Shown in pieces: positions 1 through 33,235 of a stretch of 33,235 bases of DNA (position 1 is its first letter; each line of letters begins with the position of its first letter). Source of the stretch: a virus. Where the stretch lies: the IMG/VR virus record IMGVR_UViG_3300021399_000067, positions 1 through 33,235 of that record; one strand, 5' to 3'. Under the pieces are notes generated by a model that was not told where the DNA came from, did not search any database, and saw nothing but the letters and a program-made list of their open reading frames with translations. The position numbers were made by a program, and so were the translations under genes.

Positions 1-123
1 GGCACCTATGGCGGCACCTGCGGCCGCGCCTGCAATACCCAATCCCTTGGCAATCGTTCCGCCAATGGATCCTGCCCGGGATTCGGCATCGCTTAAACCC
101 TCATCGTACTTTGAAGAATCAAG
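1..123. repeat. Terminal direct repeat; bases 1-123 are identical to 33113-33235 (circular or terminally redundant contig, unique length 33,112 bp)
   Basis: Direct base-by-base comparison of the window start (ggcacctatggcggcacctgcgg...gaagaatcaag) with its end. Confidence 0.95.
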
Positions 124-156
124 GGACAATGTGGCAAATAAATCAAATACGTTCAT
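1..156 (-). CDS. Tape measure protein, N-terminal 52 codons (MNVFDLFATLSLDSSKYDEGLSDAESRAGSIGG...); continues across the circular junction into 31205..33235
   Basis: ATG at 154-156 preceded by GGAGGTA. It overlaps the upstream stop as ATGA. It is in frame with ORF 31205..33154 once 33,112 is subtracted (156-42=114, a multiple of 3). Confidence 0.8.
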   Translation of the reverse strand, partial: MNVFDLFATLSLDSSKYDEGLSDAESRAGSIGGTIAKGLGIAGAAAGAAIGA

Positions 157-392
157 ATGTTACCTCCCAAATCGGCCATGAATTTATTGATAATATCGTT
201 GGCCTTTTCTTCGGGGTTTCCTTCTTTTTCTTCGGGAACCAATCCGAGGATTTCCGGGTATGTCTTTGTTAGATACTTGCCACCCAATGCATGGGTAACG
301 GATTCACAAATTAAACGCAACGCCTCCGATGTATAAGATTGATACACCATCGTTCGTTGCGTTTCATCGTTGATTGCTAACATATAAGACAC
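153..392 (-). CDS. Tail assembly chaperone, T-like segment (probably made as a -1 frameshift extension of 452..799)
   Basis: It lies between the chaperone and the tape measure gene. It is in the -1 frame relative to 452..799, and that frame is open upstream to 515, past the G stop at 452-454. The ORF-track start is only GTG. Confidence 0.55.
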   Translation of the reverse strand: MSYMLAINDETQRTMVYQSYTSEALRLICESVTHALGGKYLTKTYPEILGLVPEEKEGNPEEKANDIINKFMADLGGNI

Positions 393-451
393 GAACGGTG
401 TTAATTCCCGTTTGCCCTTATATTGTCCGTAGCACCGCCAAAAAAGGGCGA

Positions 452-799
452 TTAATTGTCGGGGATTTGACGGTGCGATTGAAAAAGTTTTTGTACCTCC
501 GCATTGGAAATCAAATCAAGGATTTGCATTGGCAATGTGACAACATTGATTTGCTCCCGGTATTCGTCCACGGGGACATCCTCAATGCGTGCCAAAATCT
601 CAATGATTGCCTCCTTGTTGTTCTTCAACATCGGCTTTACATACTTAATCGGTGCAACACGGATCCTGTTTCCATTTTCATCCGTTGAATTGTACAATGC
701 GCGGATTTCCTTATCTGCAAGGATAACCGCCAACGGTTCCATGATGTCTGCCATTAAATCAATGGCCGCCTCGCCTTTATAATCCGACAATCTTTTCAT
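452..799 (-). CDS. Tail assembly chaperone (G-like)
   Basis: 115 aa ORF immediately after the major tail gene and before the tape measure; call rests on this conserved position. Confidence 0.65.
   Translation of the reverse strand: MKRLSDYKGEAAIDLMADIMEPLAVILADKEIRALYNSTDENGNRIRVAPIKYVKPMLKNNKEAIIEILARIEDVPVDEYREQINVVTLPMQILDLISNAEVQKLFQSHRQIPDN
481..493 (-). promoter_or_regulatory. Candidate -1 ribosomal frameshift tract CAAAAACTTTTTC
   Basis: A5 and T5 runs lie inside the 60-nt overlap where both the 0 and -1 frames are open. It is not a canonical XXXYYYZ heptamer in the 0 frame. Confidence 0.35.
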
Positions 800-802
800 A
801 AA

Positions 803-1405
803 TTAACCCTCGCCACCCTCGGTGTTTTCGTTGTTGCCTGCGTTTCCTCCGTTTTCGGGTTCACCAATGTAAAACTCCACGGGTTCCGTATCCTGCGAAT
901 TGAGGCTTGTGTGTGCCGTGATTGACGCGGACATTGTACCCTTGCCCTTGTCGGTTGTCTTAAGGGAAAAACCATCGGTGGAAAGTGCGTTAATAAGATG
1001 CACCGCTATGTAACCGCCATTGGACAAATCGCCAATCCACCAAATATCGCCGAAATCAGAAACGGCAAGGTCAACATTGGACACAATTGCACCGCTTTCG
1101 TTGGTCCTTGCGGCGGCAAGAACGAATTTAAGGGATGCATCATTGATATTAAGCAGGGTTGCGGCAATGTTTACATCCATTTCCGTTTTGCGCTTAAGTT
1201 CCTTGGTGTTCTTCGGGCAATTGTCGATGTCCGAACCGAAATCCTCAAATGTCGGCTTGGCGTTGATGGTAATGCCGCCGCTTGTCGCGGAAATAATCTT
1301 ATTAAGGTCCAAAACGCCCGTTGTGGGGTCGAAATCCTTAACCAAAACGCCTGCATTCACTTGTAATTCGTTAAATGTATCTTCGGGAATCTTTGTGAAT
1401 CTCAT
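803..1405 (-). CDS. Major tail (tube) protein
   Basis: 200 aa ORF just upstream of the chaperone pair. N-terminus IPEDTFNELQVNAGVL... resembles Gram-positive siphophage tube proteins. Acidic/Gly-rich C-terminal tail. Confidence 0.7.
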   Translation of the reverse strand: MRFTKIPEDTFNELQVNAGVLVKDFDPTTGVLDLNKIISATSGGITINAKPTFEDFGSDIDNCPKNTKELKRKTEMDVNIAATLLNINDASLKFVLAAARTNESGAIVSNVDLAVSDFGDIWWIGDLSNGGYIAVHLINALSTDGFSLKTTDKGKGTMSASITAHTSLNSQDTEPVEFYIGEPENGGNAGNNENTEGGEG

Positions 1406-1420
1406 GTGTTTAATTCCTCC

Positions 1421-1786
1421 TTAGTTTGATAAAAATTCGATTTCAAGGTTGATTGAATATCCCTTAATGGATGAATCATCATCATCGTTCGTCCTGTTGG
1501 CGAATGGTGAACCCTTATTAATCAATATGGATCCAACATCCATGGGAACCAAACGGCCCCGGGAAATGTAATCCGAAACGGATTTCAAAATGGTGTCCAA
1601 CGATTCCCACGATTCAACGCGATTCCAAATGGAACCACTCGCAGGAACGGCCGTCCCCAATTCGTCAATCGTTGTTTCGTATATGCAATACGGCAATTTG
1701 GCATAATCGGGAACCGCGCCCGATTCATAACAGGGCAACCCGGTTGCGCTATGCCAAAAATCATATAATGCCTGTTGCTTATCCAT
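1421..1786 (-). CDS. Tail terminator / tail completion protein (called by position)
   Basis: 121 aa ORF between the head-closure gene and the tail tube gene. Confidence 0.45.
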   Translation of the reverse strand: MDKQQALYDFWHSATGLPCYESGAVPDYAKLPYCIYETTIDELGTAVPASGSIWNRVESWESLDTILKSVSDYISRGRLVPMDVGSILINKGSPFANRTNDDDDSSIKGYSINLEIEFLSN

Positions 1787-2132
1787 TGGGCAACTCCCAT
1801 TCCTCCGCCTCTACTTGGCGCATATTCAATGTCGAAACGGACGGTGAAACATTATCGTCACCATCCGATGTAACACGGAATATCTTGCCATCCTTGTTAC
1901 GGCGTACAACATCGTGATATTGAAGATTGACATTGGCCCGTGTGGTTATCGTGTACCGGGGAATTGCATTCGCTTGCTCCGCGATGCGCATTTCCTCGGA
2001 GGATTCGAACCCAAAAACGGCATCGATGGTCACGCCATCAACGTATGTCGGTTTTGTTCCGCCCCTGCCATCGTCAACATAAATCTTGTTGATGATGGTT
2101 CCCTTTTCGAGTGCCGATTCCCACAACATCAT
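1779..2132 (-). CDS. Head closure / head-tail joining protein
   Basis: Trimmed from ORF 1779..2366 to the ATG at 2132, which overlaps the upstream stop (ATGA). Size and position match gp7/gp16-type stoppers. Confidence 0.6.
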   Translation of the reverse strand: MMLWESALEKGTIINKIYVDDGRGGTKPTYVDGVTIDAVFGFESSEEMRIAEQANAIPRYTITTRANVNLQYHDVVRRNKDGKIFRVTSDGDDNVSPSVSTLNMRQVEAEEWELPNG

Positions 2133-2578
2133 TCCGCCAATCCTCTTAATCTGCGATATTTGTTTAACCTCTTTGCAAATGCGCCCTGCCATGTGGTCGT
2201 ATCGGATCCATCGGCGGATGCGGATGCCTTGGTGTATGAATAGTTTTGGAACGATTCCGATGCGAATGGTGACATCGCAGGCGATTTGGAATCGCCATAC
2301 GATGTTTGCCATTCTTGAATATCGGAGGCAAGGGCAATAACAGTTTGGGGAACCGCCATTGCCCATATTGTGCCATTAAAGGTTTCATCAACCAAATCGA
2401 ATGCCGGGTATTGATGCACGCCATCGTTGAAAACCGAACCGACAATGCGGAAATATTGGCCATTCTTGATTTGGGGCAACACGATGGTGGAATTCTCAAT
2501 CGTGTAATTCCCGGTTGCCTTTGATACAACAAAATGGTTGTTCAAATATTCGCATAACTCGGTTAACATCGCTTGCAT
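2129..2578 (-). CDS. Head-tail adaptor/connector protein
   Basis: 149 aa ORF directly after the major capsid gene; GGAGGTATTAAACG precedes the ATG. Confidence 0.5.
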   Translation of the reverse strand: MQAMLTELCEYLNNHFVVSKATGNYTIENSTIVLPQIKNGQYFRIVGSVFNDGVHQYPAFDLVDETFNGTIWAMAVPQTVIALASDIQEWQTSYGDSKSPAMSPFASESFQNYSYTKASASADGSDTTTWQGAFAKRLNKYRRLRGLAE

Positions 2579-2597
2579 CGTTTAATACCTCCGGGGA

Positions 2598-3500
2598 TTA
2601 ACCCTCGCCGCCTGCGGATGCGGCCGTGATTGTTCCAACGATAACGCCATCGGGCATTTCGGGGAATATATCGATACCACTAACGGCAACGGTTTCCTCC
2701 TGCATCCTTGTGTAATTGGCCTCCTCGTGGATTCCAACAAATCCTGTTTCGGGATCCGTTGTGAAATCAAAGATTTCGTCAAGGCCGTTTGCACCGTTCA
2801 CATCGATGTAATACATAACAAGATTCTGCATTGCGGTTGCATAGAATGTACCCTTTGTCACGGCGGATGTGATGATAACAGTTCCGAGGCCAAGGAAATC
2901 CTCCACGTACTTGAAACCAAATGCGGTTTGTGTGGAAATTGCGGCCGTCTTGAGATAATCCGCGATGTCGAGGGGATTAACGAAATAAACGGTTGCGACA
3001 TCATCTTCCTCGAACGCAACTTGAAGTGCGCCCCATGCATCTGCAAGTGCGGCCTGTATGCCAACACCGCTTGCGGTTCCTGCGCCTGTGCTGAGTGCCG
3101 TTACAAGGTCACCACGGATACCCTTTTGGATGTCCTTAACCATCTTGGCATCGGTATCGTTTACGGCTTGGTCATACCCGCCCTTGATGATTGCCTCGGC
3201 CGTTGTTGCCTTTCTCCACTTGTCAAGTGTTGCCTCGCCAATGGGGGTCCATGTGGTTGCATACTGTGAAAGCGGGATGATCTCGCCCTCGGGAACGGCA
3301 CCATTGTGCAATGTGCCTGTTACTTTCTTAACCTTAAGCACGGTTCCTGCGGTTACGGGAATCTTTCTCGTAACACCGAGCATCTTAATGAGGGATGCGA
3401 TGGATTCGCCGAAAAGTGCGGCATAATCCATTTCACGAACCTTTGCGATGTTCTGCTTCTTGATTACATTGGTTTCTGCATCTGTGATTACATTTGCCAT
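2598..3500 (-). CDS. Major capsid protein (HK97-fold type, scaffold-dependent)
   Basis: 300 aa ORF after the scaffold gene. No delta domain and no prohead protease nearby. Good RBS. Confidence 0.85.
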   Translation of the reverse strand: MANVITDAETNVIKKQNIAKVREMDYAALFGESIASLIKMLGVTRKIPVTAGTVLKVKKVTGTLHNGAVPEGEIIPLSQYATTWTPIGEATLDKWRKATTAEAIIKGGYDQAVNDTDAKMVKDIQKGIRGDLVTALSTGAGTASGVGIQAALADAWGALQVAFEEDDVATVYFVNPLDIADYLKTAAISTQTAFGFKYVEDFLGLGTVIITSAVTKGTFYATAMQNLVMYYIDVNGANGLDEIFDFTTDPETGFVGIHEEANYTRMQEETVAVSGIDIFPEMPDGVIVGTITAASAGGEG

Positions 3501-3518
3501 CTTGAATTCCTCCTTAGA

Positions 3519-4133
3519 TTAATCGTTCTCGGGTAATCCAAACAATGTGGGATTCTCCATCATCGCCTTTTGGCGTGCAATCGGATCCGCAATTGCTCGG
3601 ATTTCCTCCTTTGTCTTTGTTGCCTTTCCATTATTCGCAGGGGGATTTGCCATGTCTGCGCCCTTGGTGGACTTAACCGGGATAAAATCGGACCATTCCT
3701 CTTTAACGGAATTAACCAATTCGTCCTTGTTGGATATGTTGCCCTCATCGTCAAATACGATGGAATCAATATCAGACACCTTAACGATTGCATCAATCCT
3801 CTTGTCGGGGATTCCGCATTCTTTAAGGATGGAACGGAATGCCGCATCTTTCTGCGCCTTTGTTTTTTCCGTTTCAACGCCTGCCTTGAACGCCTCGTAT
3901 TCCTCCTTGATGGCCTCATACTTTACCTTGTATGAATCCTCCTTGGATCCCGAATTCGCCGCCTTTAGGTTGTCAATTTCCGTCTGCATCCCGGGTACTT
4001 TGTCGGCATCTGCCTTGTATGCATCCCGTTCCGCCTTAAGGGCATCTACAACCTCCACATGGGCCGTGATGATTTCGTCCACCTTGTCGGCCTCAATTCC
4101 TAACGCCTGCAAAAACTTTCGAGAAAAAGCCAT
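3519..4133 (-). CDS. Scaffolding protein (GP20-like)
   Basis: 204 aa, highly charged coiled-coil sequence (KAERDAYKADADK..., EEYEAFKAGVETEKTKAQK) directly upstream of the capsid gene. Confidence 0.8.
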   Translation of the reverse strand: MAFSRKFLQALGIEADKVDEIITAHVEVVDALKAERDAYKADADKVPGMQTEIDNLKAANSGSKEDSYKVKYEAIKEEYEAFKAGVETEKTKAQKDAAFRSILKECGIPDKRIDAIVKVSDIDSIVFDDEGNISNKDELVNSVKEEWSDFIPVKSTKGADMANPPANNGKATKTKEEIRAIADPIARQKAMMENPTLFGLPEND

Positions 4134-4197
4134 GTCGAATCTCCTTTACTTCGGTATATTTTCTTTTATATTCGATTCTACTTTCATATATACCACA

Positions 4198-4233: not shown

Positions 4234-4236
4234 AAA

Positions 4237-4575: not shown

Positions 4576-4577
4576 GG

Positions 4578-7994: not shown

Positions 7995-8055
7995 GGATCC
8001 AACCTCCTTGTGGTTATAAGCACATTATAACATGAAATGCAATAGTCAAAAGGAT

Positions 8056-9333
8056 TTATGCGAAATGCCCGGTGATGCGTTTTTCCTCATCCTTGGCCGC
8101 CCACAATACACGGATTAAGGATGCCAACGAATCCGGGGCATCGTCATGTTCGGCATATTCGTTGTAATCCAATATCATATCCAAATAATCATCGTCCGTC
8201 CCATCAACGAACACGACATTGCGCCATTCAAATTTCAGATACGAAACAATTTTATAGTATTTGTTCGTATCTTCCCAATATGTAACAACCTTTTCGCCGC
8301 GTTTCCGCAATTCCTTGGCCATATATCCCTTATCGCCGTTGGTTTCGCACCAAATCTTGCCGATTAAGAATTGTTTACGCAGGGCGATGATTTCGTCCAT
8401 GCATTCGTCAATGTGTTTATGCCACGCTTTGCCCAAAACATAATACTTGCCTTGGGTTTTCTTCACGATGGTGTAAACGGTCCAATCCTCGCCGCCGTAT
8501 GCCGCATCAATATGGGAATATGTGGAATTCATAACCATCGCAGGATCCGCACCGATGGACGGCGAATCGAATATAACATCCTCGGAGGCAATGTGGCGTA
8601 ATTCGTAATTGGCCGCGAAAAGGGACGGCGGCAATTCCTCTTTTTTCTGTGCGATTTCCGCCTCCGACATCAACCCGGTTGAATAACAATCGTATTTTTT
8701 CGGCTCGGGCATGATGGTAAATGCATCATCCTTTTGCCATGGCGTGCCTGTGTTGTATATGCGGCCACCACGATTAAGGATGTTGTGTAACTCCAAATAT
8801 TGCATCTTGGTAAATTCACGTTCCGCCCGGGATGTCCTATCATCAACGGTTACAATATCGTCCGTGAATATCCTGTCGAAGTGTTGGCCCGTCATGGATG
8901 CTTTTATGCCGCTTGCACACAATTGGGATGTTCCCCTTGGGTCCGATGTCAAATTGGTATGGATTTCGAATGCCGAATCCGTGATGAATTTCAAATCCAC
9001 TCCCCAAATGATGCGGATAATCTGCCGCGAAATTGAATGTTTTAACATCAACGTAACTTGGCGGACAATCTCCTTGGCGTTGTTGTCCGTCTTTCTAAAA
9101 AATTTGGTCCTATCATTTGGATATAATATTATAATTAAGAATAAAGCCAACGCAACGCACGTTGTCTTGTATGAACCACGATGTGCCTGCAAGGTTGTGT
9201 CACCCTTGCCGAATACCATGTCTTTGGTCCATTCATTATTCAATGGCGTTAATTTGGTAAATCCCAAATGATGGCCTAATATGTATGGTTGTTCCTTAAC
9301 TTTCCGCAGGATCCGTGTTTGTTCCGGGGTCAT
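8056..9333 (-). CDS. terL: Terminase large subunit
   Basis: 425 aa. Walker-A-like LQAHRGSYKTT near the N-terminus and an acidic nuclease half. It overlaps terS by 38 nt. Confidence 0.85.
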   Translation of the reverse strand: MTPEQTRILRKVKEQPYILGHHLGFTKLTPLNNEWTKDMVFGKGDTTLQAHRGSYKTTCVALALFLIIILYPNDRTKFFRKTDNNAKEIVRQVTLMLKHSISRQIIRIIWGVDLKFITDSAFEIHTNLTSDPRGTSQLCASGIKASMTGQHFDRIFTDDIVTVDDRTSRAEREFTKMQYLELHNILNRGGRIYNTGTPWQKDDAFTIMPEPKKYDCYSTGLMSEAEIAQKKEELPPSLFAANYELRHIASEDVIFDSPSIGADPAMVMNSTYSHIDAAYGGEDWTVYTIVKKTQGKYYVLGKAWHKHIDECMDEIIALRKQFLIGKIWCETNGDKGYMAKELRKRGEKVVTYWEDTNKYYKIVSYLKFEWRNVVFVDGTDDDYLDMILDYNEYAEHDDAPDSLASLIRVLWAAKDEEKRITGHFA

Positions 9334-9724
9334 TTAAGAAATCCTCAATCTCATTCCTGTGGGATTCGTCAATCTCGGCAACGGTCACATCCTGTTTGTC
9401 CGTCTGCCCCAACCATTGTTTGCCCAACCATATGGCCATGCGTTCGGAACCTGCCTCCGCCATATTGAATTGGATGTGGCGCAACGCCGTTTTGCCATTT
9501 TCGGCCTTTTTATTAAGCACGGTTGCAAAATCTGTCCCATACGTTGCCTTGCACCATCGCGTAATCGTGCATTCGTCAACATCGAAGAATGCGGCAATCT
9601 CGGAACGTGTGCATTGAATTTTGCACAATTGTTCGAATTGCCTTTGGTTTATCTCCTTTTTTGGCCGCCCAACTTTCTTTTTGGTCGTTTTCGCCGTTTC
9701 TTTGGCGTTTTTCTTTCCTGCCAT
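9296..9724 (-). CDS. terS: Terminase small subunit (HTH type)
   Basis: Trimmed to the ATG at 9724 (MAGKKNAKETAKTTKKKVGRPKK...). Basic N-terminus, HTH (TRSEIAAFFDVDECTITRWC), directly upstream of terL. Confidence 0.7.
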   Translation of the reverse strand: MAGKKNAKETAKTTKKKVGRPKKEINQRQFEQLCKIQCTRSEIAAFFDVDECTITRWCKATYGTDFATVLNKKAENGKTALRHIQFNMAEAGSERMAIWLGKQWLGQTDKQDVTVAEIDESHRNEIEDFLNDPGTNTDPAES

Positions 9725-9754
9725 CTTGCCGTACCTCGCATCCATAACAGTATT

Positions 9755-9794
9755 AAAAGGGCATATCACCCACAATTGGATTTTATGCCCTTTT
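9755..9794 (-). terminator. Hairpin AAAAGGGCATA-18 nt-TATGCCCTTTT at the end of the middle operon
   Basis: 11-bp inverted repeat at 9755-9765/9784-9794 in the only gap upstream of terS; T-rich 3' side on the minus strand. Confidence 0.5.
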
Positions 9795-9809
9795 GCCTTG
9801 GTTTGTCAA
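9780..9809 (-). promoter_or_regulatory. Sigma-70-type promoter TTGACA-18-TAAAAT (late operon candidate)
   Basis: -35 at 9804-9809 and -10 at 9780-9785, about 55 nt upstream of the terS ATG. The -10 sits inside the hairpin. Confidence 0.5.
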
Positions 9810-9817
9810 AAATGGGA

Positions 9818-10201
9818 TTATTCCCACCACTTTTTCCGTTTGTTCGGTTCCTCGATGATGATTCCCCGGTATGCCATCATCTTGCGTTTAAGGATGTATT
9901 CCTTTGTTTCCATGCCCTTTACATCCTCCACATGCTCCTTGCCGTCCTTGTCGATGTAAACGAAATCTGCAACATACTTGATGGCACGAATCGTTTTGGA
10001 TCCAATCTTAAACGATGATTGCAATTCGTATGGCACTTGCATCCTCAATTGGGATATTTCGCCTTTGGCCTCCATATCGGATAATTGGATGTATCGCATC
10101 ATTTCCGCCTTGGAATCGAATTTCACGCCGTTAATTGTCGGTTTCTCGTTGCCGTATTTCCTGCGCTTGCAATCACCGCCGATGGGATACAACCATTTCA
10201 T
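9818..10201 (-). CDS. DUF1064-like protein (PD-(D/E)xK-type nuclease/resolvase-like)
   Basis: 127 aa with the pattern KYGNEK..INGVKFDSKAEMMRY...YVADFVY...VEDVKG. Confidence 0.6.
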   Translation of the reverse strand: MKWLYPIGGDCKRRKYGNEKPTINGVKFDSKAEMMRYIQLSDMEAKGEISQLRMQVPYELQSSFKIGSKTIRAIKYVADFVYIDKDGKEHVEDVKGMETKEYILKRKMMAYRGIIIEEPNKRKKWWE

Positions 10202-11658: not shown

Positions 11659-12018
11659 TCAATCCTCCCGGTTGTTTTGGATCCATGTTTCGCACCATTC
11701 CACAAACGTGGCGTGTGATAATGGCAACGCGCATGTATAATGTCCCATCGCCTCGATTGTTCCGTTCGTTTCCTTGAAGATGGAAATCGTGTAAATCCCC
11801 GCTTGCTCATGGTATCCAAACGAATATCCGCAGGACTCGTATGTGTCCGCGTGGGCCTCCAATCCTGCCAACCTTTCCTCATCCCTGTGGTTCATTCCAT
11901 CTTCGTGTCCTGTGGCATATCCATCTTCGTATCCTGTGGCATATCCATACTCGCGGCCGCGTTCCCACGCCTGCTCCAACAATTTGTCCTTGTATTTCTC
12001 CAATGCTCGATTATTCAT
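11659..12018 (-). CDS. Hypothetical protein with internal GYATG(Y/H)EDG tandem repeat
   Basis: 119 aa; RBS GGAGGCAAACAATG; about 24-nt tandem DNA repeat around 11896-11945. Confidence 0.55.
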   Translation of the reverse strand: MNNRALEKYKDKLLEQAWERGREYGYATGYEDGYATGHEDGMNHRDEERLAGLEAHADTYESCGYSFGYHEQAGIYTISIFKETNGTIEAMGHYTCALPLSHATFVEWCETWIQNNRED

Positions 12019-12042
12019 TGTTTGCCTCCAATCTGTTATAAT
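12014..12042 (+). promoter_or_regulatory. Plus-strand extended -10 promoter TGTTATAAT (weak -35 TTCATT) for the tRNA
   Basis: TATAAT at 12037-12042 with TG at 12034-12035. The seventh base downstream is 12049, the first base of the tRNA. Confidence 0.45.
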
Positions 12043-12048
12043 CTGTGT

Positions 12049-12122
12049 AGCGCATTAGTGTAATGGCAACACAACGGTTTTTGGGTCCGTTATTATGGGT
12101 TCGAATCCCATATGCGCCGCCA
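12049..12122 (+). tRNA. tRNA, anticodon UUG (Gln-type), 74 nt with encoded CCA
   Basis: Hand-folded cloverleaf. Acceptor AGCGCAT/ATGCGCC (A1-C72 mismatch). D arm GTGT-AATGGCA-ACAC. Anticodon arm ACGGT-TTTTGGG-TCCGT (U31-U39 mismatch). Variable region TATT. T arm ATGGG-TTCGAAT-CCCAT. Discriminator G, then CCA. Confidence 0.75.
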
Positions 12123-12293
12123 TCATATCTCCACAATGTCCGCTTGAACCTCCGTGTATCCCTTTTCAACCAAATCGGAACACACATCGCACGCCGCGCG
12201 GTCACATGCATTATAATCTGAAAATATATTGCACCCCTTAATAATATGCAATCTTCCGTTGTGGTCCCTATATTCACATTCGTATTTATACAT
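12123..12293 (-). CDS. Small Cys-rich hypothetical protein (56 aa, MYKYECEYRDHNGRLHIIKGCNIFSDYNACDRAACDVCSDLVEKGY...)
   Basis: GGAGGAATGACC precedes the ATG. The stop TGA abuts the 3' end of the opposite-strand tRNA. Not in the ORF track. Confidence 0.45.
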   Translation of the reverse strand: MYKYECEYRDHNGRLHIIKGCNIFSDYNACDRAACDVCSDLVEKGYTEVQADIVEI

Positions 12294-12295
12294 GG

Positions 12296-12436
12296 TCATT
12301 CCTCCATTTCGTCCTCTATTTCGTCCTCTATTTCGTCCTCTTCGGGTTCCTCGAAATAATCCCCGTAAATGTCCTCATTCTCGCCCCACGGATACATCGG
12401 TCTATCCGGGAAATTATCACAAATCAAATCAAGCAT
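12296..12436 (-). CDS. Very acidic 46-aa protein (MLDLICDNFPDRPMYPWGENEDIYGDYFEEPEEDEIEDEIEDEMEE)
   Basis: GGAGGATGTTGAAA precedes the ATG, which overlaps the upstream stop. The C-terminus is encoded by a 12-nt x3 tandem repeat at about 12307-12342. Confidence 0.45.
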   Translation of the reverse strand: MLDLICDNFPDRPMYPWGENEDIYGDYFEEPEEDEIEDEIEDEMEE

Positions 12437-12674
12437 TTTCAACATCCTCCTTTAATTCAACATCACCGAAATGGTACACGCCAATGGATACCTTGGATCC
12501 ATCCATGTTCGTTACCGTCCTGCGTGTGCAAACGATGTCATATCCTGCCTTTTTCAAATCGAAGATAATTGCGGACAACCGCAGGATCCCCATGCGCATT
12601 GCCTGCATTGATGTGATGGATCCGTAGGATTCCATGAAATCCAAAACCCTGTCATACTGTGTTAACCTTGCCAT
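12429..12674 (-). CDS. Winged-helix / HTH DNA-binding protein
   Basis: 81 aa; GSITSMQAMRMGILRLSAIIFDLKKAGYDI resembles small phage HTH proteins. Confidence 0.5.
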   Translation of the reverse strand: MARLTQYDRVLDFMESYGSITSMQAMRMGILRLSAIIFDLKKAGYDIVCTRRTVTNMDGSKVSIGVYHFGDVELKEDVENA

Positions 12675-15243: not shown

Positions 15244-15262
15244 GTGTCGGGATCCTCCTTGA

Positions 15263-20779: not shown

Positions 20780-21146
20780 TGTTTGCCTCCTTTTCTGCAT
20801 CTAACATAACATATTCGTTATCAATCACCCTGCATTCAATCGTTAACCTTGTATCGCAGGAAATCCGTTGTGCCTCGAATCTGTCGTGCAATGTAACATA
20901 GACATCACAATATGTTGGTGTTGATGTCAACGATACCGTGTTAACAGAAATCGGCGCAATCACAATTTTGGGTCCTTTGTCTGTGTTAATCTTCAATCGG
21001 ATGTATGATTTTGCACCGCCCCTCTTGTTTTCACCCGTAAAATCAATGGCCATCATGTCGTAAACCTTGGATCCGCAATAAACGCATGTTCCTGCATCGT
21101 TTAGGATTCCGCCGCAATTGGGACAATTCTTCAATTGTTCAATCAT
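20772..21146 (-). CDS. Zinc-ribbon protein (124 aa)
   Basis: CPNCGG...CVYCGS N-terminus; RBS present. Confidence 0.5.
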   Translation of the reverse strand: MIEQLKNCPNCGGILNDAGTCVYCGSKVYDMMAIDFTGENKRGGAKSYIRLKINTDKGPKIVIAPISVNTVSLTSTPTYCDVYVTLHDRFEAQRISCDTRLTIECRVIDNEYVMLDAEKEANNE

Positions 21147-21396
21147 TCGTATTGCCCTCCTTTTCCGCCAAAAAGCACCATCCCTCGGGATCAGTCTTCA
21201 TATAACCATTGCCCCACTTGGTGCATGCCTCGTGTCCTGTGATTATCGGAACGCCCGGGCATGCCTCGGTAAAAACATCCTCCAAATAGTATTTGCAATG
21301 CTTGCACTTGATTAATTCCGTGGGGACCATCTCAATTGATGCCAATTTTGGTTTGTATTCGAACACCATACCATCGGGAATATCAATTCTTGCCAT
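21139..21396 (-). CDS. Small Cys-rich protein (85 aa)
   Basis: CKHCKYY...C...C; shares the conserved junction sequence at its start. Confidence 0.5.
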   Translation of the reverse strand: MARIDIPDGMVFEYKPKLASIEMVPTELIKCKHCKYYLEDVFTEACPGVPIITGHEACTKWGNGYMKTDPEGWCFLAEKEGNTND

Positions 21397-27993: not shown

Positions 27994-28006
27994 TTGGTTT
28001 TCCTCC

Positions 28007-29019: not shown

Positions 29020-29031
29020 CTTGGTTCCTCC

Positions 29032-30822
29032 TTAATCGCAAATAATATGATTTGCGCCATCTTCAGTAATTATCGTTGATTCGCCATCCTCGGTCAATAT
29101 ACGGTTAACCGCCACATCCATTACGACACGGCCAATATCCGTATAACCGAACGCGATTCCATCGGATCCAATGCCAAACGAATATGTATCCCGGGCATTG
29201 TCCCTTTGGGGTTCACCCTCCGAATACGAGGATGTGGAATCGTCATATGTAAACCCGATACCCTCTTGAATATTGAATTGGTATTCGTCCGTTGCCTCCA
29301 AATATCCATCCCAAACGCCTGCGGTTACGCCCACGCCTTGAATTACAACATGGCAATTGTCAACGGCAACGATTCCCTCGCCGTCTGTTGACATGATTTC
29401 AACGATAACCTCGTTGATTTGCTCGTTGGTGATGTTAACAGGCAAGAACAATGTTATCGTGTCCAATCCAACCGGGAATTGGCACACATGGATAAATGGT
29501 TCATAGAATCCATTAACGCGATACCTAACATACACATGCCCTGCATCCGTCATATTAAGGCGAATAACGCCGTGTAATTGTGCAATTTGTGATTGCATTA
29601 CACCGATGCGAAGATGGGCAATTTGCCGCCATTCCTCGTCAATTCCCACGGCCGTGGCGTTGGCATAATGGATAACGGATATTCTATCCTTGCCCGATTC
29701 CGTGGATTTCTTCAATCCTGCGATGTTTTTGTCCGTTTTAGATTTCGCACCGAACAACGCAGGATTCTTGCCAAATCCTGTTATCTTCACGCCCTTGCGA
29801 TACGAGAATTCAATTTTATGGACACAACACATGGAATATGTCCCGGCAAGACCATCCGTGTATTTTATTACATCGCCCAAATCGAAACACGGATCCAATA
29901 AACCCGATGATGTAAACGGCGTATAATCGAATGCCTCCAACGCCGCCAATATATTGCGGCATCGTTCCGCCTTGGTGGATTCATCGCCGTATTGCATCAA
30001 CGGATTCGGTCCCAAATTCATGGTCAATCCTGTGTCGGATGTGGTCCCATAATACGATGTCGTTTCCTCCGCAATATTGGTGATGGAAACGCCCGTGTAA
30101 TATGTCACGAAATCGGACCATTGGCCGCCTGTGGCGCGGTCGTACACATCCATGGTTATATCCTCGGAGGAATGCCATGTGCGGAATTCCAAACGCCCTG
30201 TACGGTTTATCGTGGCGAATCCTCCGATGGTAACGGCAATCCATGAAATAAAATCACGCCATGTTTCGATGTCGTTTTCGGGATACAAACTCAATAACTC
30301 CGTGCCGTTCGGTAATGCCTGCATTTCCGTTTGGGTCATTCCCAATTGAACATTGCAATTCCTGCACGCCAACGTGGCCAATGCAAACACATTGCCATCG
30401 GTCGATTTAACGCCCATCGTTTTATCAAATTTCGTCATGGCATCATATGCCGTTACGGATACGCCGTCCCGGGACCACATCGCGGAATCGATGGTGTATG
30501 GCTTGCACGGCACATCCTCCCATGTGTCGTTCGCAGGATCCACCAATAAACCAATACTGCATCGGATTTCCTTGCCTCGCCAATCGCCACGATTGACATT
30601 GGCGGCGAACGCAGGGCAAAAGGTCAAATCCATTTGTCCCACGAATACACCGCCCAAATTAATATCTGCGGAATTAACGCATTTTTCGGTTATCGTGAAC
30701 GATGATGATATTATATCGTTCTCGGTGAATGCAATATTTCCAACGGTCCCACGGATGCGCCGCGTTACAACCTTTGTATTGGATAATATCTTTTGAAGAT
30801 ATGCCGTTGATACCGCATACAT
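29032..30822 (-). CDS. Tail tip / tail-associated protein (Tal position, 596 aa)
   Basis: Trimmed to the ATG at 30822 (GGAGGAATTATAAAATG); second gene after the tape measure. Confidence 0.55.
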   Translation of the reverse strand: MYAVSTAYLQKILSNTKVVTRRIRGTVGNIAFTENDIISSSFTITEKCVNSADINLGGVFVGQMDLTFCPAFAANVNRGDWRGKEIRCSIGLLVDPANDTWEDVPCKPYTIDSAMWSRDGVSVTAYDAMTKFDKTMGVKSTDGNVFALATLACRNCNVQLGMTQTEMQALPNGTELLSLYPENDIETWRDFISWIAVTIGGFATINRTGRLEFRTWHSSEDITMDVYDRATGGQWSDFVTYYTGVSITNIAEETTSYYGTTSDTGLTMNLGPNPLMQYGDESTKAERCRNILAALEAFDYTPFTSSGLLDPCFDLGDVIKYTDGLAGTYSMCCVHKIEFSYRKGVKITGFGKNPALFGAKSKTDKNIAGLKKSTESGKDRISVIHYANATAVGIDEEWRQIAHLRIGVMQSQIAQLHGVIRLNMTDAGHVYVRYRVNGFYEPFIHVCQFPVGLDTITLFLPVNITNEQINEVIVEIMSTDGEGIVAVDNCHVVIQGVGVTAGVWDGYLEATDEYQFNIQEGIGFTYDDSTSSYSEGEPQRDNARDTYSFGIGSDGIAFGYTDIGRVVMDVAVNRILTEDGESTIITEDGANHIICD

Positions 30823-30823
30823 T

Positions 30824-31204
30824 TTATAATTCCTCCAATGTGAACGATATTTCCCATACGCCTGCAACCTCGGTCAACTTTTCGGACCCCTTGCGTGGAT
30901 TGCACGAAAATCCATTCATATACATTGTGTGGACTTCGTAACCATGTGTAACCGGGGAATAAATGGAAACAACAAACGATTCCTTTTTTGAATAGGTTTC
31001 AAAGAATCCCGCCCATTCATCATCCGCAACCGAACAATTGAACGGAACCGCCAATTTCTCGGCGCGGATTATCTGCATCATATCGCGGCCACCCTCCGAT
31101 TGCATCGTTTCGCGGATGGGGTTGTTGTTCCTGCCCCACTTGGATGGCCAAAAGGGAATTGTGGTATTGTCGAATATGAACGGATAATTGTTGATACTTG
31201 CCAT
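30824..31204 (-). CDS. Small distal tail protein (Dit position, 126 aa)
   Basis: Starts immediately after the tape measure stop (TAAATG). Shorter than typical Dit proteins. Confidence 0.45.
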   Translation of the reverse strand: MASINNYPFIFDNTTIPFWPSKWGRNNNPIRETMQSEGGRDMMQIIRAEKLAVPFNCSVADDEWAGFFETYSKKESFVVSIYSPVTHGYEVHTMYMNGFSCNPRKGSEKLTEVAGVWEISFTLEEL

Positions 31205-33235
31205 TTATCCTCTACCTCCGCCAATAAAATCATTCCTTTGGTTTGATTGTACCACGAATTCATCGATTTGTTCTCCGCCGATGTAAACAGGAACGACAAC
31301 GGTTTGATTTGTTGCTTGGCTTATCGCCTGCAACAATTGATTGTATCCCATTATCAATTCGCCGCCGTATGAATCACCGCCGCCCAATGCGCGGCCGTCA
31401 CCATAACCAAAAATTGTGGGGTCATTTAACAAGATGGGTTGATTATATGCCTTTTTGTACCATTCCACGCCAACGGACGGTAACGAACCTTGCCCACCGA
31501 ATCCCCATGGTGCCTCGCCTCCACTAACGGAAAAGTGCGGCAATTTGATTTCGGGCAATTCCCAATCGAAATCGAAGAATCCCAACAATTCATCGATTGC
31601 CCCGGACACAATGGATTTGGCATCCTCAAATATGCCTGTGAATTTCTCCCATACATCGTCACCGAATCCCTCGATTTTGCCGATTATATCGGAAAATCCT
31701 GTGGTGAAATTCTCCCATGCATCGGAAAAGAATGTAACTATGGATTCTATAACATCCGCGCCAATCTCGCCTGCCTTGGTTAATACATCGGATCCAAATG
31801 TGGTAACTTTATCCCACCATTGCGCAAGGCCGTCAATAACCTCAACCAATCCGTCACCGAACATGTCGTACAACCAATTTCCTAAATCTTCGCCCAAATC
31901 TGCGATGAAATTGCCGATTTGAACCGCGATGTCGGGTAACGATTCCGCCAATGCAACTATGATATTAGAAATAAGGATAATTGCCGCGCCCACCAATTCC
32001 GGGGCATGCTCGAGCAACGCCGTTGATATCGTCAATATGATTTCAACGGCCACGTTGATAAACGATTCGATGTTGTCCGGGGTCAAAAAATCATCAACCA
32101 AAATGTGGATAACATCAATAACCGTGTCCAAAAGTAAATCCGCATTATCTGCAAGGCCGTTGGCCAATCCCATGAGCAATTCGCCGCCCGCCTCGATGAG
32201 CATTGGCGTGACGGATATAATCGCAGGGATTAACGTGCTTAGAATCTGCGGCAAGGCCGCCGAAATCGCGCTAATTATAGATGGCAACGCCTGCACCAAT
32301 GCCGTGACAATCGAAATGGATGCCGACAATAACGGAGGCAATACCGTGTCGATGATGGTTGGTAATTGGTCCACGATTATTGGCGCAACCTCTTGAATCA
32401 ATGTCGCGATTCCGCCCAACGCCTGCGTAACAACCGGGGCCAAATTGCCAACAACTGTTTCGGCGGATGAAACAACATTGTCAATCAAGGATCCCAAATC
32501 GGCGTTTTCGTCTGCCATGCCTGTTACAAGATTTGTCCACGATGCGGACAACATCCCGATGGATCCGCTAATGGTTGTGGATGCCTCGTTGCTTGTCGTG
32601 CCTGCGATGTTCATTTCCTCTTGCACGGCGTGGATGGCCTCAATCATTTGGTCGAATGAAACATCATCAAGGGATGTTATTTGTTCCTCCAAAATGCCCG
32701 AATCGTTTATCAATCGGAGCATTTCCTCGCCTGTGCCGCCATAACCTAATTTGAGATTATCCAACATGGTGTAATTGCCCTTGGCAAATCCCATGTATGC
32801 GTTTTGTATCGCCTCCATGTCCGTGCCGTATGTGTTGGCATTGTCTGCCATGTCGGCAATGGCCATGTTGGCAATATCTGCGGCCGCATCCGTATCGCCA
32901 CCCAATCCCTGCAACAACGATGCCGAAAAGCCTGTTACTGTTTCCATGTATTGGTTAGCGGACATTCCCGCGGTTTCGAACGCCTGTGATGCATATTCCA
33001 TCACGGTATCGGAGGAATCGCCGAATAACTTTTCAACGCCGCCCGATAATTGTTCAAAATCCGCATATGCCTTGACGGATTCGGTCGTTAATGTGGCAAC
33101 GCCTGTGGCGGCGGCACCTATGGCGGCACCTGCGGCCGCGCCTGCAATACCCAATCCCTTGGCAATCGTTCCGCCAATGGATCCTGCCCGGGATTCGGCA
33201 TCGCTTAAACCCTCATCGTACTTTGAAGAATCAAG
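31205..33235 (-). CDS. Tape measure protein, main body; open to the window end and continues at 1..156 (687 aa in total on the circle)
   Basis: Long Ala/Gly/Ile-rich helical ORF after the chaperone pair. The frame stays open upstream of the ORF-track start at 33154. The joined length of 2064 nt is a multiple of 3. Confidence 0.85.
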   Translation of the reverse strand, partial: LDSSKYDEGLSDAESRAGSIGGTIAKGLGIAGAAAGAAIGAAATGVATLTTESVKAYADFEQLSGGVEKLFGDSSDTVMEYASQAFETAGMSANQYMETVTGFSASLLQGLGGDTDAAADIANMAIADMADNANTYGTDMEAIQNAYMGFAKGNYTMLDNLKLGYGGTGEEMLRLINDSGILEEQITSLDDVSFDQMIEAIHAVQEEMNIAGTTSNEASTTISGSIGMLSASWTNLVTGMADENADLGSLIDNVVSSAETVVGNLAPVVTQALGGIATLIQEVAPIIVDQLPTIIDTVLPPLLSASISIVTALVQALPSIISAISAALPQILSTLIPAIISVTPMLIEAGGELLMGLANGLADNADLLLDTVIDVIHILVDDFLTPDNIESFINVAVEIILTISTALLEHAPELVGAAIILISNIIVALAESLPDIAVQIGNFIADLGEDLGNWLYDMFGDGLVEVIDGLAQWWDKVTTFGSDVLTKAGEIGADVIESIVTFFSDAWENFTTGFSDIIGKIEGFGDDVWEKFTGIFEDAKSIVSGAIDELLGFFDFDWELPEIKLPHFSVSGGEAPWGFGGQGSLPSVGVEWYKKAYNQPILLNDPTIFGYGDGRALGGGDSYGGELIMGYNQLLQAISQATNQTVVVPVYIGGEQIDEFVVQSNQRNDFIGGGRG
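33113..33235. repeat. Second copy of the 123-bp terminal repeat (identical to 1-123)
   Basis: Direct comparison. Confidence 0.95.

Follow-up and report, generated by a model that had tools for sequence, protein, structure and literature searches.

The real anomaly in this uncultured rumen siphovirus is a context lock: the tetranucleotide GATC is banned throughout the genome, but one of its contexts, the palindrome GGATCC, is spared. Across the 33,235-nucleotide stretch analysed (hereafter the window), an exact count gives 71 GATC, 69 of them GGATCC (70 and 68 on the circle), with exceptions at 3279 and 21189, just as the original prediction had counted them. The reading we favour, with a probability of roughly 0.4, combines GATC-directed restriction in the host, a shield in the form of GGATCC-specific (BamHI-type) host methylation, and weak, HIP-like positive selection. 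The features referred to are the following.

1 to 33,235: the phage's complete genome, comprising a circle of 33,112 bp and an assembly overlap of 123 bp.
33,113 to 33,235: terminal direct repeat, an exact 123-base match to bases 1-123.
3279 to 3282: first GATC outside GGATCC (TGATCT on the plus strand, AGATCA on the coding strand), inside a 300-aa gene at 2598-3500.
7995 to 8000, minus strand: intergenic GGATCC directly upstream of the portal gene ATG, coding-strand context AAGGAGGTTGGATCCATG.
8056 to 9333, minus strand: large terminase gene, the marker for finding relatives and defining the clade.
9296 to 10,201, minus strand: junction of the DUF1064 gene and the small-terminase gene, with no methyltransferase cassette.
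9309 to 9314, minus strand: GGATCC where the small- and large-terminase genes overlap, an example of flank conversion.
15,250 to 15,255, minus strand: intergenic GGATCC that overlaps the replication-initiator gene's ribosome-binding site, coding-strand context CAAGGAGGATCCCGACACATG.
21,189 to 21,192: second GATC outside GGATCC (GGATCA on the plus strand, TGATCC on the coding strand), in a small early gene at 21139-21396.
GGATCC starts, first part: 67, 661, 1529, 2204, 2752, 3583, 3945, 4776, 4997, 5772, 5784, 6180.
GGATCC starts, second part: 7115, 7662, 7995, 8543, 9309, 9998, 10265, 10723, 10871, 11333, 11607, 11679.
GGATCC starts, third part: 12495, 12584, 12618, 13065, 13203, 14228, 14385, 14636, 15250, 15859, 16232, 16966.
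GGATCC starts, fourth part: 17302, 17624, 19134, 19614, 20175, 20592, 21069, 21788, 22050, 22462, 22602, 22856.
GGATCC starts, fifth part: 23425, 23623, 23650, 23841, 24546, 25940, 26189, 26676, 26839, 27076, 27247, 27780.
GGATCC starts, sixth part: 28439, 28525, 29164, 29891, 30536, 31790, 32489, 32561, 33179 (33179 duplicates 67).

The 123-bp repeat is an assembly overlap, left because the genome is circular or circularly permuted. Independent assembly yielded the same genome as ~33.1 kb contigs in two other data sets (assemblies of 33,167 and 33,142 bp) and as fragments in IMG/VR; since the GATC/GGATCC pattern is identical in all of these, it is not an assembly artefact. All long genes of the phage lie on the minus strand. 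The gene holding the first exception is presumably the major capsid gene, because the gene for the scaffold protein (Phage_scaffold match) lies immediately upstream of it, and an independent assembly that spans this position (L005; 43 GATC, 42 of them GGATCC) also has one GATC outside GGATCC.

GGATCC occurs at 2.05 per kb, with 4-10 sites in every 3-kb bin and a mean spacing of 487 bp, close to the ~490 bp given earlier. The sites occupy all three reading frames (30 Gly-Ser, 21 x-Asp-Pro and 11 x-Ile-x) and, in about three cases (7995, 15250 and 21788), truly intergenic sequence; because all of these follow the same rule, a single codon pair is no explanation, as had been argued from the start. 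Of the two gene leaders named at that stage, the site at 7995 was correctly placed, while the other starts at 15250 rather than 15249, and the copies extended to GCAGGATCC or GGATCCTGC, put at about 15, number 13 on the circle.

Base composition predicts 124.5 GATC and 6.5 GGATCC, so that GGATCC, the most frequent hexamer of the genome, is 10.5-fold in excess. Outside GATC, GAT is preceded by G in ~34% of cases and ATC is followed by C in ~32%, from which about 8 of 70 GATC would be expected as GGATCC, not 68. The other 15 flank combinations are present in 0-1 copies each, including GGATCA/G/T and A/C/TGATCC; as these half-matched contexts are as absent as the rest, exemption requires the complete palindromic hexamer. 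GAT and ATC are themselves abundant, and the coding strand is rich in hexamers containing AGAT (GCAGAT 37, GAAGAT 24, CAAGAT 23, ACAGAT 19), yet AGATC occurs once. GATC is observed 64 times versus 147 expected from codon shuffles, and outside GGATCC it is significantly depleted, at two copies versus about 110-130 expected under composition- and codon-aware nulls. A word under restriction avoidance is avoided wherever present, whereas GATC is tolerated in 68 copies of GGATCC.

The original prediction put the enrichment of GGATCC at 8-10 fold and held that it calls for a positive explanation. The figure stands against base composition, but most of the excess follows from the removal of GATC. With protein and codon usage kept, the 62 GGATCC in coding sequence compare with 17 expected (3.7x), and a swap-MCMC null that keeps protein, codon counts and junction dinucleotides yields 28.3±5.1 (2.2x). 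Adding a ban on all other GATC contexts raises this null to 45-47, and a further 83 depleted words raise it to 51.4±3.2. The ban-conditioned nulls overall thus expect 45-51 copies and leave a residual of 1.2-1.4x in the window, so most of the excess needs no positive explanation. In line with a passive origin, the Gly codon before a T-starting codon is GGA in ~60-69% of cases, irrespective of the next codon, and the non-GATC neighbours GAATCC, GGATTC, GCATCC and GGATGC already reach 24-31 copies each. Relatives behave alike: under the null, under the null with the ban, and as observed, GGATCC numbers 13.4, 28.9 and 44 in L008, 17.3, 31.1 and 44 in L007, and 14.8, 26.5 and 38 in L095. The residual excess over the ban-only equilibrium is 1.2-1.5x across four lineages and 1.4-1.5x in these three.

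We give negligible weight to the view that amino-acid and codon usage alone produced the pattern. This vocabulary does lift the GGATCC expectation from 6.5 to 17-28. However, the view is refuted by shuffles keeping codons or dinucleotides, in which GATC reaches 139-147 copies but GGATCC only 17-28, and GGATCC stays at or below 29 in all 500 codon shuffles; the codon-shuffled controls proposed with the original prediction therefore do not reproduce the enrichment. The rule is also obeyed in all three frames and between genes, and orthologous proteins of sister phages follow the opposite rule.

Sites also appear to have been acquired by conversion of their flanks. Direct evidence for such conversion comes from outgroup phages, in which a differently flanked GATC is aligned with about 8 of 35 compared sites. 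At 9309, for example, GGATCC in the window, L007 and L008 encodes Arg-Ile-Leu using a rare CTN Leu codon, and the aligned position reads GGATCT in outgroup L094 and CGATCT in outgroup L093.

It is possible, though doubtful, that GGATCC is instead a functional, positively selected iterated palindrome of the HIP type, present about once per gene as the site of a dimeric protein or of a site-specific modification and acting as a 'self' mark, roadblock, condensation signal or recombination signal; the purge of GATC would then be unrelated, or would guard against off-target action at near-cognate words. HIPs occur at 1-2 per kb (PMC4390886), a range whose upper end the density of GGATCC matches, and the GGATCC count exceeds the ban-conditioned null in all four lineages. 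The sites are conserved at 67% in L007 and 46% in L008, compared with 35% and 13% for all hexamers and 30% and 14% for one-mismatch neighbour words, and wherever the amino acids are conserved GGATCC is kept (19/19 and 8/8). Part of this conservation is expected from the ban alone, which locks the flanks of existing sites, while the preferred codons GGA and GAT raise it in appearance; comparison of the window with L008 shows turnover at about half of the sites. Spacing is more even than the ~0.97 coefficient of variation of random placement (0.66, 0.57, 0.74 and 0.70 in four lineages; P from below 2e-4 to 0.02) and has the lowest coefficient among 142 frequent hexamers, but it is marginal against random subsets of the 114 synonymous potential positions that the proteins permit (P = 0.05-0.10). 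Only 11 genes lack a site, versus 17.7 expected, and GGATCC fills 21 of the 24 eligible x-Asp-Pro positions, although a clade-wide depletion of GAC/GTC forces GAT-CC at Asp-Pro. Some sites arose by amino-acid change, as in the portal, which has Gly-Ser here and Gly-Lys, Gly-Asn or Gly-Asp in five outgroups, and rare CTN Leu and CCT Pro codons occur within sites. Against selection as the main cause, most of the abundance arises in the nulls without it, and no candidate binding protein or methyltransferase was found in the phage. Protein binding and DNA modification had been the second and third candidates of the original prediction; the extra conservation, more even spacing and residual excess weakly suggest them.

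Relatives were found, and the clade defined, by the large terminase gene. The lock belongs to one clade of uncultured rumen siphoviruses, with five sampled lineages (three complete) and three more in which it is partial, and it was seen in 0 of 80 genome-derived loci of related prophages, taken to include as much as 10 kb of sequence on either side. Sister lineages lack GGATCC, lack GATC altogether, or have their GATC locked as AGATCR. GATC is absent, versus 45-75 expected, from many relatives (L028, L040, L060, L082, L103-L107, L144 and L161), and about half of the relatives, among them L003, L010, L018, L030, L047, L057, L075 and L092-L094, have zero GGATCC among 44-137 GATC. GATC-directed and GGATCC-directed pressures are both common in this phage family. 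The comparison with related phages that had been called for thus shows the lock and its residual excess recurring within the clade and opposite patterns, absent from the earlier account, in sister lineages. Relatives under both pressures have reached zero GATC, whereas the clade keeps 2 sites per kb, an observation to be set against the shield model.

Some sister lineages follow orientation-specific rules. On the coding strand of L092, 61 of 63 GATC are AGATCR and YGATCT is absent, and L099 and L101 share its top contexts; in L096 every GATC has a coding-strand 5' G (GGATCC 20, GGATCT 7, GGATCG 4), the mirror forms AGATCC and CGATCC being absent, so that GGATCB occurs on the coding strand only. 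Such rules, which count against the shield model, are impossible from a symmetric type II enzyme with a symmetric methylase. They would suit selection on one strand or orientation, through type III-like restriction or through a nuclease or modifier whose substrate is single-stranded DNA or mRNA, with the genes all on one strand and GGATCC the sole context that satisfies the flank rule on both. We consider this quite unlikely as the source of the lock. In fully locked genomes the rule is perfectly symmetric and indistinguishable from a duplex rule, the flank letter is G or A depending on lineage, which no single RNase or single-strand enzyme would produce, and coding preferences for AAG-ATC and GAG-ATC may explain part of the L092 asymmetry. 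We know of no nuclease with such one-strand specificity. One-orientation site bias does serve T7 as an escape from type III restriction by EcoP15I, and it is similar in that sister lineages keep GATC words one way and AG words of the window are often confined to the coding strand; however, GGATCC is palindromic, which makes orientation, including the strand skew of Chi-like or uptake-like motifs, inapplicable, and the affected words far exceed the reach of one enzyme.

The purge of short words in this genome, which the original prediction did not mention, extends far beyond GATC. AGCT (0 versus 22 expected), CTAG and CCWGG (0 versus 32) are absent, and of the 64 six-base palindromes 33 occur once at most, versus 0.7 expected. 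The CT and AG steps stand at 0.23 and 0.53 of expectation on the coding strand, the CT depletion holding in all three codon phases, and many AG words run one way (GGCAGG 38 versus CCTGCC 1; TGCAGG 27 versus CCTGCA 0). These asymmetries are what selection on one strand would leave, yet AGC/GCT, ACT/AGT and CTA/TAG are depleted on both strands. The strand-biased CT/AG depletion is carried by the same clade as the lock, and the shield model does not account for it. With both strands combined CT/AG is at 0.41 of expectation, to our knowledge outside the range of cellular genomes.

That figure also bears on whether the pattern is inherited background, the phage mirroring mutation and repair in a host whose genome has a GGATCC iterated palindrome or the same GATC bias, for example through an orphan methyltransferase and biased very-short-patch-type repair. 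Phage word usage commonly follows the host, HIP-type palindromes including GGGATCCC occur genome-wide in some bacteria together with a cognate methyltransferase (PMC4390886), and the lock is limited to one clade and inherited together with further compositional oddities, as if tracking one host lineage. Such inheritance is nevertheless very unlikely, given the CT/AG value and the absence of the pattern from the 80 prophage loci. Among the non-GATC neighbour words of GGATCC, the T-variants (GGATTC 31, GAATCC 31) are not depleted relative to the others (GCATCC 30, GGATGC 24), which speaks against enrichment by very-short-patch repair.

No DNA match to known phages and no close relative among 185,579 species genomes was found, but distant relatives are located in ruminant-gut Clostridia MAGs and endolysin homologues point to Clostridia only. 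No methyltransferase domain was detected among the window's proteins, and none was seen in the 21-kb locus of L008, which has the full lock; the lock is therefore independent of a phage-encoded methyltransferase, and any shield must be host-derived. In relatives, methyltransferase or DNA-modification cassettes lie just upstream of the small-terminase gene, in L007 (radical SAM and an N6_N4_Mtase-like gene) and L094 between the DUF1064 and terminase genes. Cassettes are also present in L092 and L093, a PAPS-reductase-family gene in L095, and a methyltransferase or DNA-modification gene in L096.

Sharp reportedly described the avoidance of restriction palindromes in phage genomes in 1986. The phenomenon is documented by Rusinov et al. 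2018 (PMC6286503), and the window resembles it in that short palindromes are lost genome-wide and in every frame, the phage has no methyltransferase of its own, and relatives avoid different word sets, as expected from differing host restriction repertoires. In contrast to ordinary avoidance, GATC is lost in 15 of 16 flank contexts and freely used in the sixteenth, which is a classic restriction target wholly avoided by sister phages, and the depletion reaches just over half of all six-base palindromes, whole trinucleotides and one dinucleotide step. Similarly, cyanobacterial HIPs (HIP1, GCGATCGC, with GGGATCCC as the alternate in Synechococcus JA-3-3Ab/JA-2-3B'a) are GATC-core palindromes at ~1-2 per kb or roughly one per gene, in all frames, conserved above background and non-randomly spaced, and are thought to depend on a word-specific methyltransferase (PMC4390886, PMC5861425). 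However, HIPs are recognised by a 15- to 300-fold over-representation against an adequate null, where GGATCC here reaches 1.2-3.7x over a fair null; they belong to cellular genomes encoding cognate orphan methyltransferases, unlike this phage; and the two HIP papers describe for HIP1 no such loss of the core word outside the palindrome, which is the striking feature here (PMC4390886, PMC5861425). In subcluster B3 mycobacteriophages GGATCC exceeds expectation >4-fold genome-wide, unlike in sister subclusters and without explanation, but GATC overall is also 4-fold over, whereas here it is about half of expectation and confined to GGATCC (PMC4841201). The statement that no described phage system accounts for the pattern is thus nearly true, with B3 mycobacteriophages (PMC4841201) and HIPs (PMC4390886) as partial precedents.

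Restriction with a host shield, the first candidate of the original prediction (a GATC nuclease with a GGATCC methylase, and escape by flank conversion), fits best, in view of the full-hexamer exemption, the flank conversion and the pressures seen in relatives; from these we infer restriction enzymes as the cause of the ban and host methylation as the shield. In overlapping-methylation shielding, the C or A of a GATC embedded in a longer site can be modified by the methylase of that site, and a given GATC enzyme may be blocked by N4mC or 5mC in GGATCC, as in methylation-sensitivity tables; we know of no description of a genome-wide evolutionary footprint of such shielding. The proposed mechanism draws on M.BamHI, whose product is GGAT(N4m)CC (PMC3646050), and on DpnI/DpnII/DpnIII (PMC4471560), the enzyme pair here being proposed by analogy, and a known methyltransferase methylates the A of GATC only when G-flanked (PMC5809426). 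Three alternative GATC-directed systems are possible at one bacterial locus (PMC4471560), and because GATC is the target of several mutually exclusive systems, its deletion is the only universal escape.

Lacking a methyltransferase, the phage would survive through word avoidance, with an exceptional number of short words purged. GATC would most likely have been lost to GATC-directed enzymes (DpnII/MboI/Sau3AI-like, possibly methyl-dependent DpnI-like) circulating in the host population. If the hosts of this clade always modify GGATCC by a GGATCC-specific (BamHI-type) methyltransferase, GATC within it would be invisible to such enzymes and GGATCC itself unrestricted. The permitted codons (GGA before T, TCC, GAT and ATC) would generate many GATC cores, of which only those flanked by G and C would be viable, the others being destroyed or flank-converted; under this exemption rule, a high GGATCC count follows largely passively. 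The residual 1.2-1.5x excess, the complete retention at conserved amino acids and the under-dispersed spacing are not predicted by a neutral shield, and a smaller additional positive pressure may keep the sites slightly commoner, more conserved and more even than the passive model predicts.

Exact counting found 71 copies of GATC in the window, 69 of them inside GGATCC, against base-composition expectations of 124.5 and 6.5, respectively, which bears out the original prediction that the tetramer is nearly confined to a single hexamer; the two copies elsewhere are TGATCT at 3279 and GGATCA at 21189. The first 123 bases of the window are the same as the last 123, giving a unique circle of 33,112 bp with 70 GATC and 68 GGATCC, the latter every 487 bp on average, and GGATCC is the commonest hexamer of the genome. 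Outside GATC, G precedes GAT in ~34% of cases and C follows ATC in ~32%, so only ~8 of the 70 GATC would be expected to lie within GGATCC. The ban acts at the level of the tetramer and exemption from it needs the full palindromic hexamer, as half-matched flanks are missing to the same degree as all others. A union of BglII, PvuI and BclI hexamer bans is ruled out because the 12 non-palindromic flank combinations are missing as well, and AG/CT depletion does not account for the missing AGATC, since coding-strand hexamers containing AGAT are common while AGATC occurs once. Avoidance of BamHI star sites is excluded by the abundance of GAATCC and GGATTC, and a Chi-like role is unlikely for GGATCC, a palindrome. 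Separate assemblies of the same genome (33,167 bp, 33,142 bp and IMG/VR fragments) show an identical pattern, ruling out an assembly artefact. Sites fall in all three reading frames and the intergenic ones follow the rule as well, so a single codon pair cannot underlie the pattern, as had also been proposed.

GGATCC had further been described as 8-10 fold enriched, and although this raw excess over base composition stands, most of it is passive under fairer nulls. In the window's coding sequence, where 62 GGATCC were observed, a synonymous codon shuffle keeping protein and codon usage gave only 16.9±3.5 GGATCC (with 147±9.5 GATC), so the enrichment cannot be dismissed as a codon by-product. 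A swap-MCMC null that also kept junction dinucleotides gave 28.3±5.1 (139 GATC), and together the two procedures rule out a codon or amino-acid artefact. The expectation rose to 45-47±3.5 when all GATC outside GGATCC was forbidden, and to 51.4±3.2 when 83 further depleted 4/5-mers were forbidden as well; the swap-MCMC nulls keep codon counts and are hence conservative, and may keep a trace of the sequence from which they started. The bulk of the excess is therefore a passive outcome of a GATC-rich codon vocabulary and a ban on all other contexts. The main codons for Ser, Asp and Ile are TCC, GAT and ATC, and Gly ahead of any T-starting codon (TCC, TTN or TAN) is encoded by GGA in 59-69% of cases, a preference that follows from the avoidance of C|T junctions. 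Neighbouring words lacking GATC (GAATCC, GGATTC, GCATCC and GGATGC) occur at 24-31 copies each. An excess over the ban null survives in the window and replicates in three loci of related phages: L008 (no-ban null 13.4, ban null 28.9±2.3, observed 44), L007 (17.3, 31.1±2.4 and 44) and L095 (14.8, 26.5±2.6 and 38).

Every gene of the window lies on the minus strand.

Gene content of the window
Minus strand: tape-measure gene, tail proteins and an NlpC/P60-LysM-SH3 endolysin
Minus strand: SPP1-type portal, Mu-F-like head protein, large and small terminase
Minus strand: DnaD/O-like replication initiator and Gam-like protein
12429-12674: small HTH protein specific to the clade
12049-12122, plus strand: tRNA-Gln (anticodon TTG) called by ARAGORN, opposite all genes; it overlaps a minus-strand ORF at 12011-12277 and may be a false positive

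No integrase domain was found among the window proteins. Megablast of the window against 50,697 deposited phage records returned zero matches. The window's terminase shares ~50% identity with terminases of Lactococcus P335-type and Enterococcus phages. The close relatives recovered are without exception uncultured contigs from metagenomes, and their sample accessions, where known, belong to rumen or ruminant-gut data sets. An alignment scan recovered distant relatives (≤66% identity) in ruminant-gut Clostridia MAGs (Acutalibacteraceae, Oscillospiraceae and Lachnospiraceae), none of which showed the lock, that is, GATC kept almost only inside GGATCC. A single-protein scan of species genomes for the host gave no matches, and endolysin homologues hint broadly at Clostridia and at nothing narrower.

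Repeating the statistic on related phages (loci of ≤ ~21 kb each) showed the pattern to recur, and on these comparisons the GGATCC lock is a clade character.

GATC and GGATCC in the lock clade
L007: terminase 83% identical to that of the window; GATC 49, GGATCC 49
L008: terminase 75%; GATC 54, GGATCC 54
L095: endolysin 72%; GATC 40, GGATCC 39
L177: endolysin 56%; GATC 20, GGATCC 18

Partial locks were found in L097 (terminase 74%; GGATCC in 17 of 25 GATC), L178 (34 of 48, plus 8 CGATCC) and L096 (20 GGATCC, 7 GGATCT and 4 GGATCG, the coding-strand 5′ flank always being G), and CT/AG depletion is common to all seven of these loci. Just outside the clade, L094 (72%), L092 (69%), L093 (67%), L010 (66%) and L003 (58%) lack GGATCC altogether among their 49-137 GATC, as do about half of ~160 more distant loci, and phages with only the endolysin family in common did not show the lock. 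About twenty loci hold two or fewer GATC, a dozen of them zero, and L093 avoids the pentamer GGATC/GATCC. GATC-directed and GGATCC-directed pressures are thus both present in the wider phage family. L092 keeps 61 of its 63 GATC as AGATCA or AGATCG on the coding strand, mostly in AAG/GAG/CAG-ATC codon pairs, while the reverse orientation (TGATCT, CGATCT) is absent, making this an orientation-specific context lock; the top GATC contexts of L099 and L101 are the same. Across L003, L004 and many loci of L012-L173, nearly each lineage has its own set of absent tetramers (GATC, GGCC, CATG, GCGC/CGCG, ACGT or AGCT, varying by lineage), and CTAG is absent from almost all. In L008 (whole locus) and L009, GGCC is over-represented 3.2-fold (152 versus 48 expected) with random spacing (CV 1.00), and GCGC and CGCG are wholly absent.

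A methyltransferase encoded by the phage itself was rejected as the shield, as searches with PHROGs, Pfam and NCBIfam, together with precomputed Pfam hits, found no methyltransferase domain in the window proteins. Relatives carry variable methyltransferase or DNA-modification genes, mostly directly upstream of the small terminase gene; the window and L008 have none.

Modification genes of relatives
L007: 7481-9648
L092: 4289-4996 and 6088-9169
L093: 7652-9636
L094: 1120-3294
L010: 2337-6094
L095: 11860-13077
L096: 12019-13480

These cassettes include a radical SAM gene with an N6_N4 methylase-like gene, a ParB-fused N6_N4 methylase with a PP-loop ATPase, a C5 methylase flanked by ParB_N genes, ADDT with an acetyltransferase, a PAPS-reductase-family gene and split C5 methylases. 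Their distribution suggests that modification and word avoidance are two alternative strategies in this phage family.

The most economical reading, to which we assign a probability of roughly 0.4, is that GATC-directed nucleases of the host population would drive the ban, while a GGATCC-specific, BamHI-type methyltransferase, present in all hosts of the clade, would protect GGATCC from its own cognate enzyme and conceal the embedded GATC. N4mC or 5mC within GATC would be expected to block particular GATC enzymes. The product of M.BamHI is GGAT(N4m)CC (PMC3646050), some methylases target the A of GATC solely in G-flanked contexts (PMC5809426), and one pneumococcal locus may carry DpnI, DpnII or DpnIII, all GATC-directed and differing in the methylation state acted on (PMC4471560). 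Such a shield, with escape by flank conversion, had been the first candidate of the original prediction, and the ban, the hexamer-specific exemption and flank conversion agree with it. At ~8 of 35 compared sites the window's GGATCC aligns in an outgroup with GATC bearing other flanks (GGATCT or CGATCT in the terminase overlap, AGATCC or TGATCC in the Mu-F gene), which is direct evidence for the conversion of flanks. Other sites arose by amino-acid change, as in the portal, with Gly-Ser in the window and Gly-Lys, Gly-Asn or Gly-Asp in outgroups. The shield leaves unexplained the residual excess, extra conservation, even spacing, orientation rules and strand-biased CT depletion.

Three of these features favour a rival that we consider rather unlikely, in which GGATCC is a functional site resembling the highly iterated palindromes (HIPs) of cyanobacteria. 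The first is the excess over the ban null. The second is conservation beyond that of other hexamers: of the window sites compared by codon alignment, 19 of 29 recur in L007 and 10 of 24 in L008, with conservation of 67% and 46% for GGATCC, 35% and 13% for all hexamers, and 30% and 14% for one-mismatch neighbours. Where amino acids are conserved, 19 of 19 (L007) and 8 of 8 (L008) sites are kept, against 56% and 36% of hexamers generally; the ban by itself predicts some of this, since flank mutations make forbidden words, and preferred codons also add to it. The third is even spacing, with a CV of 0.66 in the window (P < 2e-4), 0.57 in L008 (P < 2e-4), 0.74 in L007 (P = 0.019) and 0.70 in L095 (P = 0.012) against ~0.97 for random placement, although these lineages have common ancestry and their P values are not independent. 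None of the other hexamers among 142 frequent ones has as low a CV as GGATCC, which is missing from 11 genes versus 17.7 expected; relative to random subsets of the 114 potential positions, the evenness is marginal (P = 0.05-0.10). Protein-permitted synonymous positions are occupied at 62 of 114 (Gly-Ser 30/57, x-Asp-Pro 21/24, x-Ile-x 11/33), the high Asp-Pro value being helped by the clade's dislike of GAC/GTC, whose depletion pushes Asp to GAT and so feeds GGATCC. GAC/GTC stands at 0.12-0.15 of expectation in L007, L008 and L095, compared with 0.53 for the window and 0.92 for L096. Cyanobacterial HIPs include GGGATCCC at 1,160-1,345 copies per Mb (PMC4390886, PMC5861425); GGATCC in the window is alike in core sequence, density, conservation and presumed methylase dependence but falls short on fold-enrichment and on encoding a methylase.

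The ban on GATC sits within a wider purge of words. AGCT, CTAG and CCWGG have zero copies in the window, 33 of 64 six-base palindromes occur once or not at all (0.7 expected), and 133 of 1,024 pentamers are missing from the first 15 kb, compared with 0 in a mononucleotide shuffle and 27 in a first-order Markov chain. Nineteen of the rare palindromes lack AG/CT (for example AACGTT, ACCGGT, GCCGGC, GGCGCC, GGGCCC, GTCGAC, GACGTC, GTGCAC, TCATGA and TCCGGA), and RCCGGY is avoided among CCGG flanks. Surviving palindromes are mostly raised to 1-4.5 times base-composition expectation because much of the word space is closed, GGATCC being extreme at 10.5 times. On the coding strand, CT and AG stand at 0.23 and 0.53 of expectation, with CT depleted in all three codon phases (observed/expected 142/324, 96/557 and 103/545), and with both strands pooled CTA/TAG, AGC/GCT and ACT/AGT fall to 0.14-0.17. 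To our knowledge, depletion of a dinucleotide step together with three trinucleotides exceeds any word bias known in a bacterial virus. The codons GCT, ACT, TCT and CCT are almost unused, and the gene stops comprise 36 TAA, 13 TGA and no TAG. DarT-type ADP-ribosylation was rejected as the cause of CT/AG depletion, as DarT1 lacks a consensus motif and that of DarT2, with T at positions 1 and 3, is different.

The strand bias of this CT depletion, a feature found in the GGATCC-lock clade only, and the orientation-specific GATC rules of L092 and L096 both suggest that some selection acts on one strand or orientation, a reading that is nonetheless improbable. Still more improbable is that the lock is inherited host background: T-variants of GGATCC, which biased repair would deplete, are normal, and this rules out very-short-patch-type repair. 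A broader and unlikely proposal is that a clade devoid of methyltransferases keeps evenly spaced, HIP-like GGATCC through selection, about one per gene, as a dense, host-methylated 'self' label or shield within a stealth genome of restricted vocabulary. Every other GATC would have been removed, as would entire di- and trinucleotides (the CT/AG step, AGY and TAG), perhaps countering several defence classes at once, including orientation-dependent systems or those with 2-3-nt motifs (CRISPR PAMs), and sister clades may meet the same problem through other locked contexts (AGATCR) or modification cassettes.

A second refuge word was seen at 94 window sites (49 CGCAGG and 45 CCTGCG on the plus strand). 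Coding-strand CTGC is CCTGCG in 51 of 54 cases, with one-mismatch neighbours at 0-1 copies, and 24 of 30 Pro-Ala dipeptides are written CCT-GCG, CCT being otherwise a rare codon; CCTGCG was observed 47 times where the nulls gave 4-15. Neither orientation predominates, and the sites are randomly spaced (CV 0.92). L007 and L095 also have the word and L008 lacks it; in the window it often adjoins GGATCC (GGATCCTGCG occurs 10 times). It is possibly a Chi-like motif used in both orientations or a methylation motif.

Our literature searches found no description of a genome that keeps a restriction tetramer solely inside one hexamer. The window works like classical restriction-site avoidance (PMC6286503), but the word is not avoided wherever it occurs. 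A paper on S. acidocaldarius was rejected as a precedent: it places every GATC within AGATCC or GGATCC, but does so by adding up motif counts, which does not show a genome-wide lock. The earlier claim that no described phage system accounts for the pattern thus holds for the lock and not for GGATCC excess, for which the B3 mycobacteriophages are the one phage precedent, although there, unlike in the window, GATC as a whole is enriched (PMC4841201).

Strong palindrome 'enrichment' can arise passively from a ban on a sub-word elsewhere, which calls for caution in motif-enrichment scans. The family's absent-tetramer sets richly document the restriction repertoires of hosts among ruminant-gut Clostridia. 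Should the residual selection be real, a HIP-like iterated palindrome would have been seen in a phage for the first time, and the phage would be a small, tractable system in which to study the function of such palindromes. If the host-methylase shield is true, phage word statistics would record both the host restriction enzymes and the host methylase relied on, so that host defence repertoires, and perhaps hosts, could be inferred from virome sequence alone.
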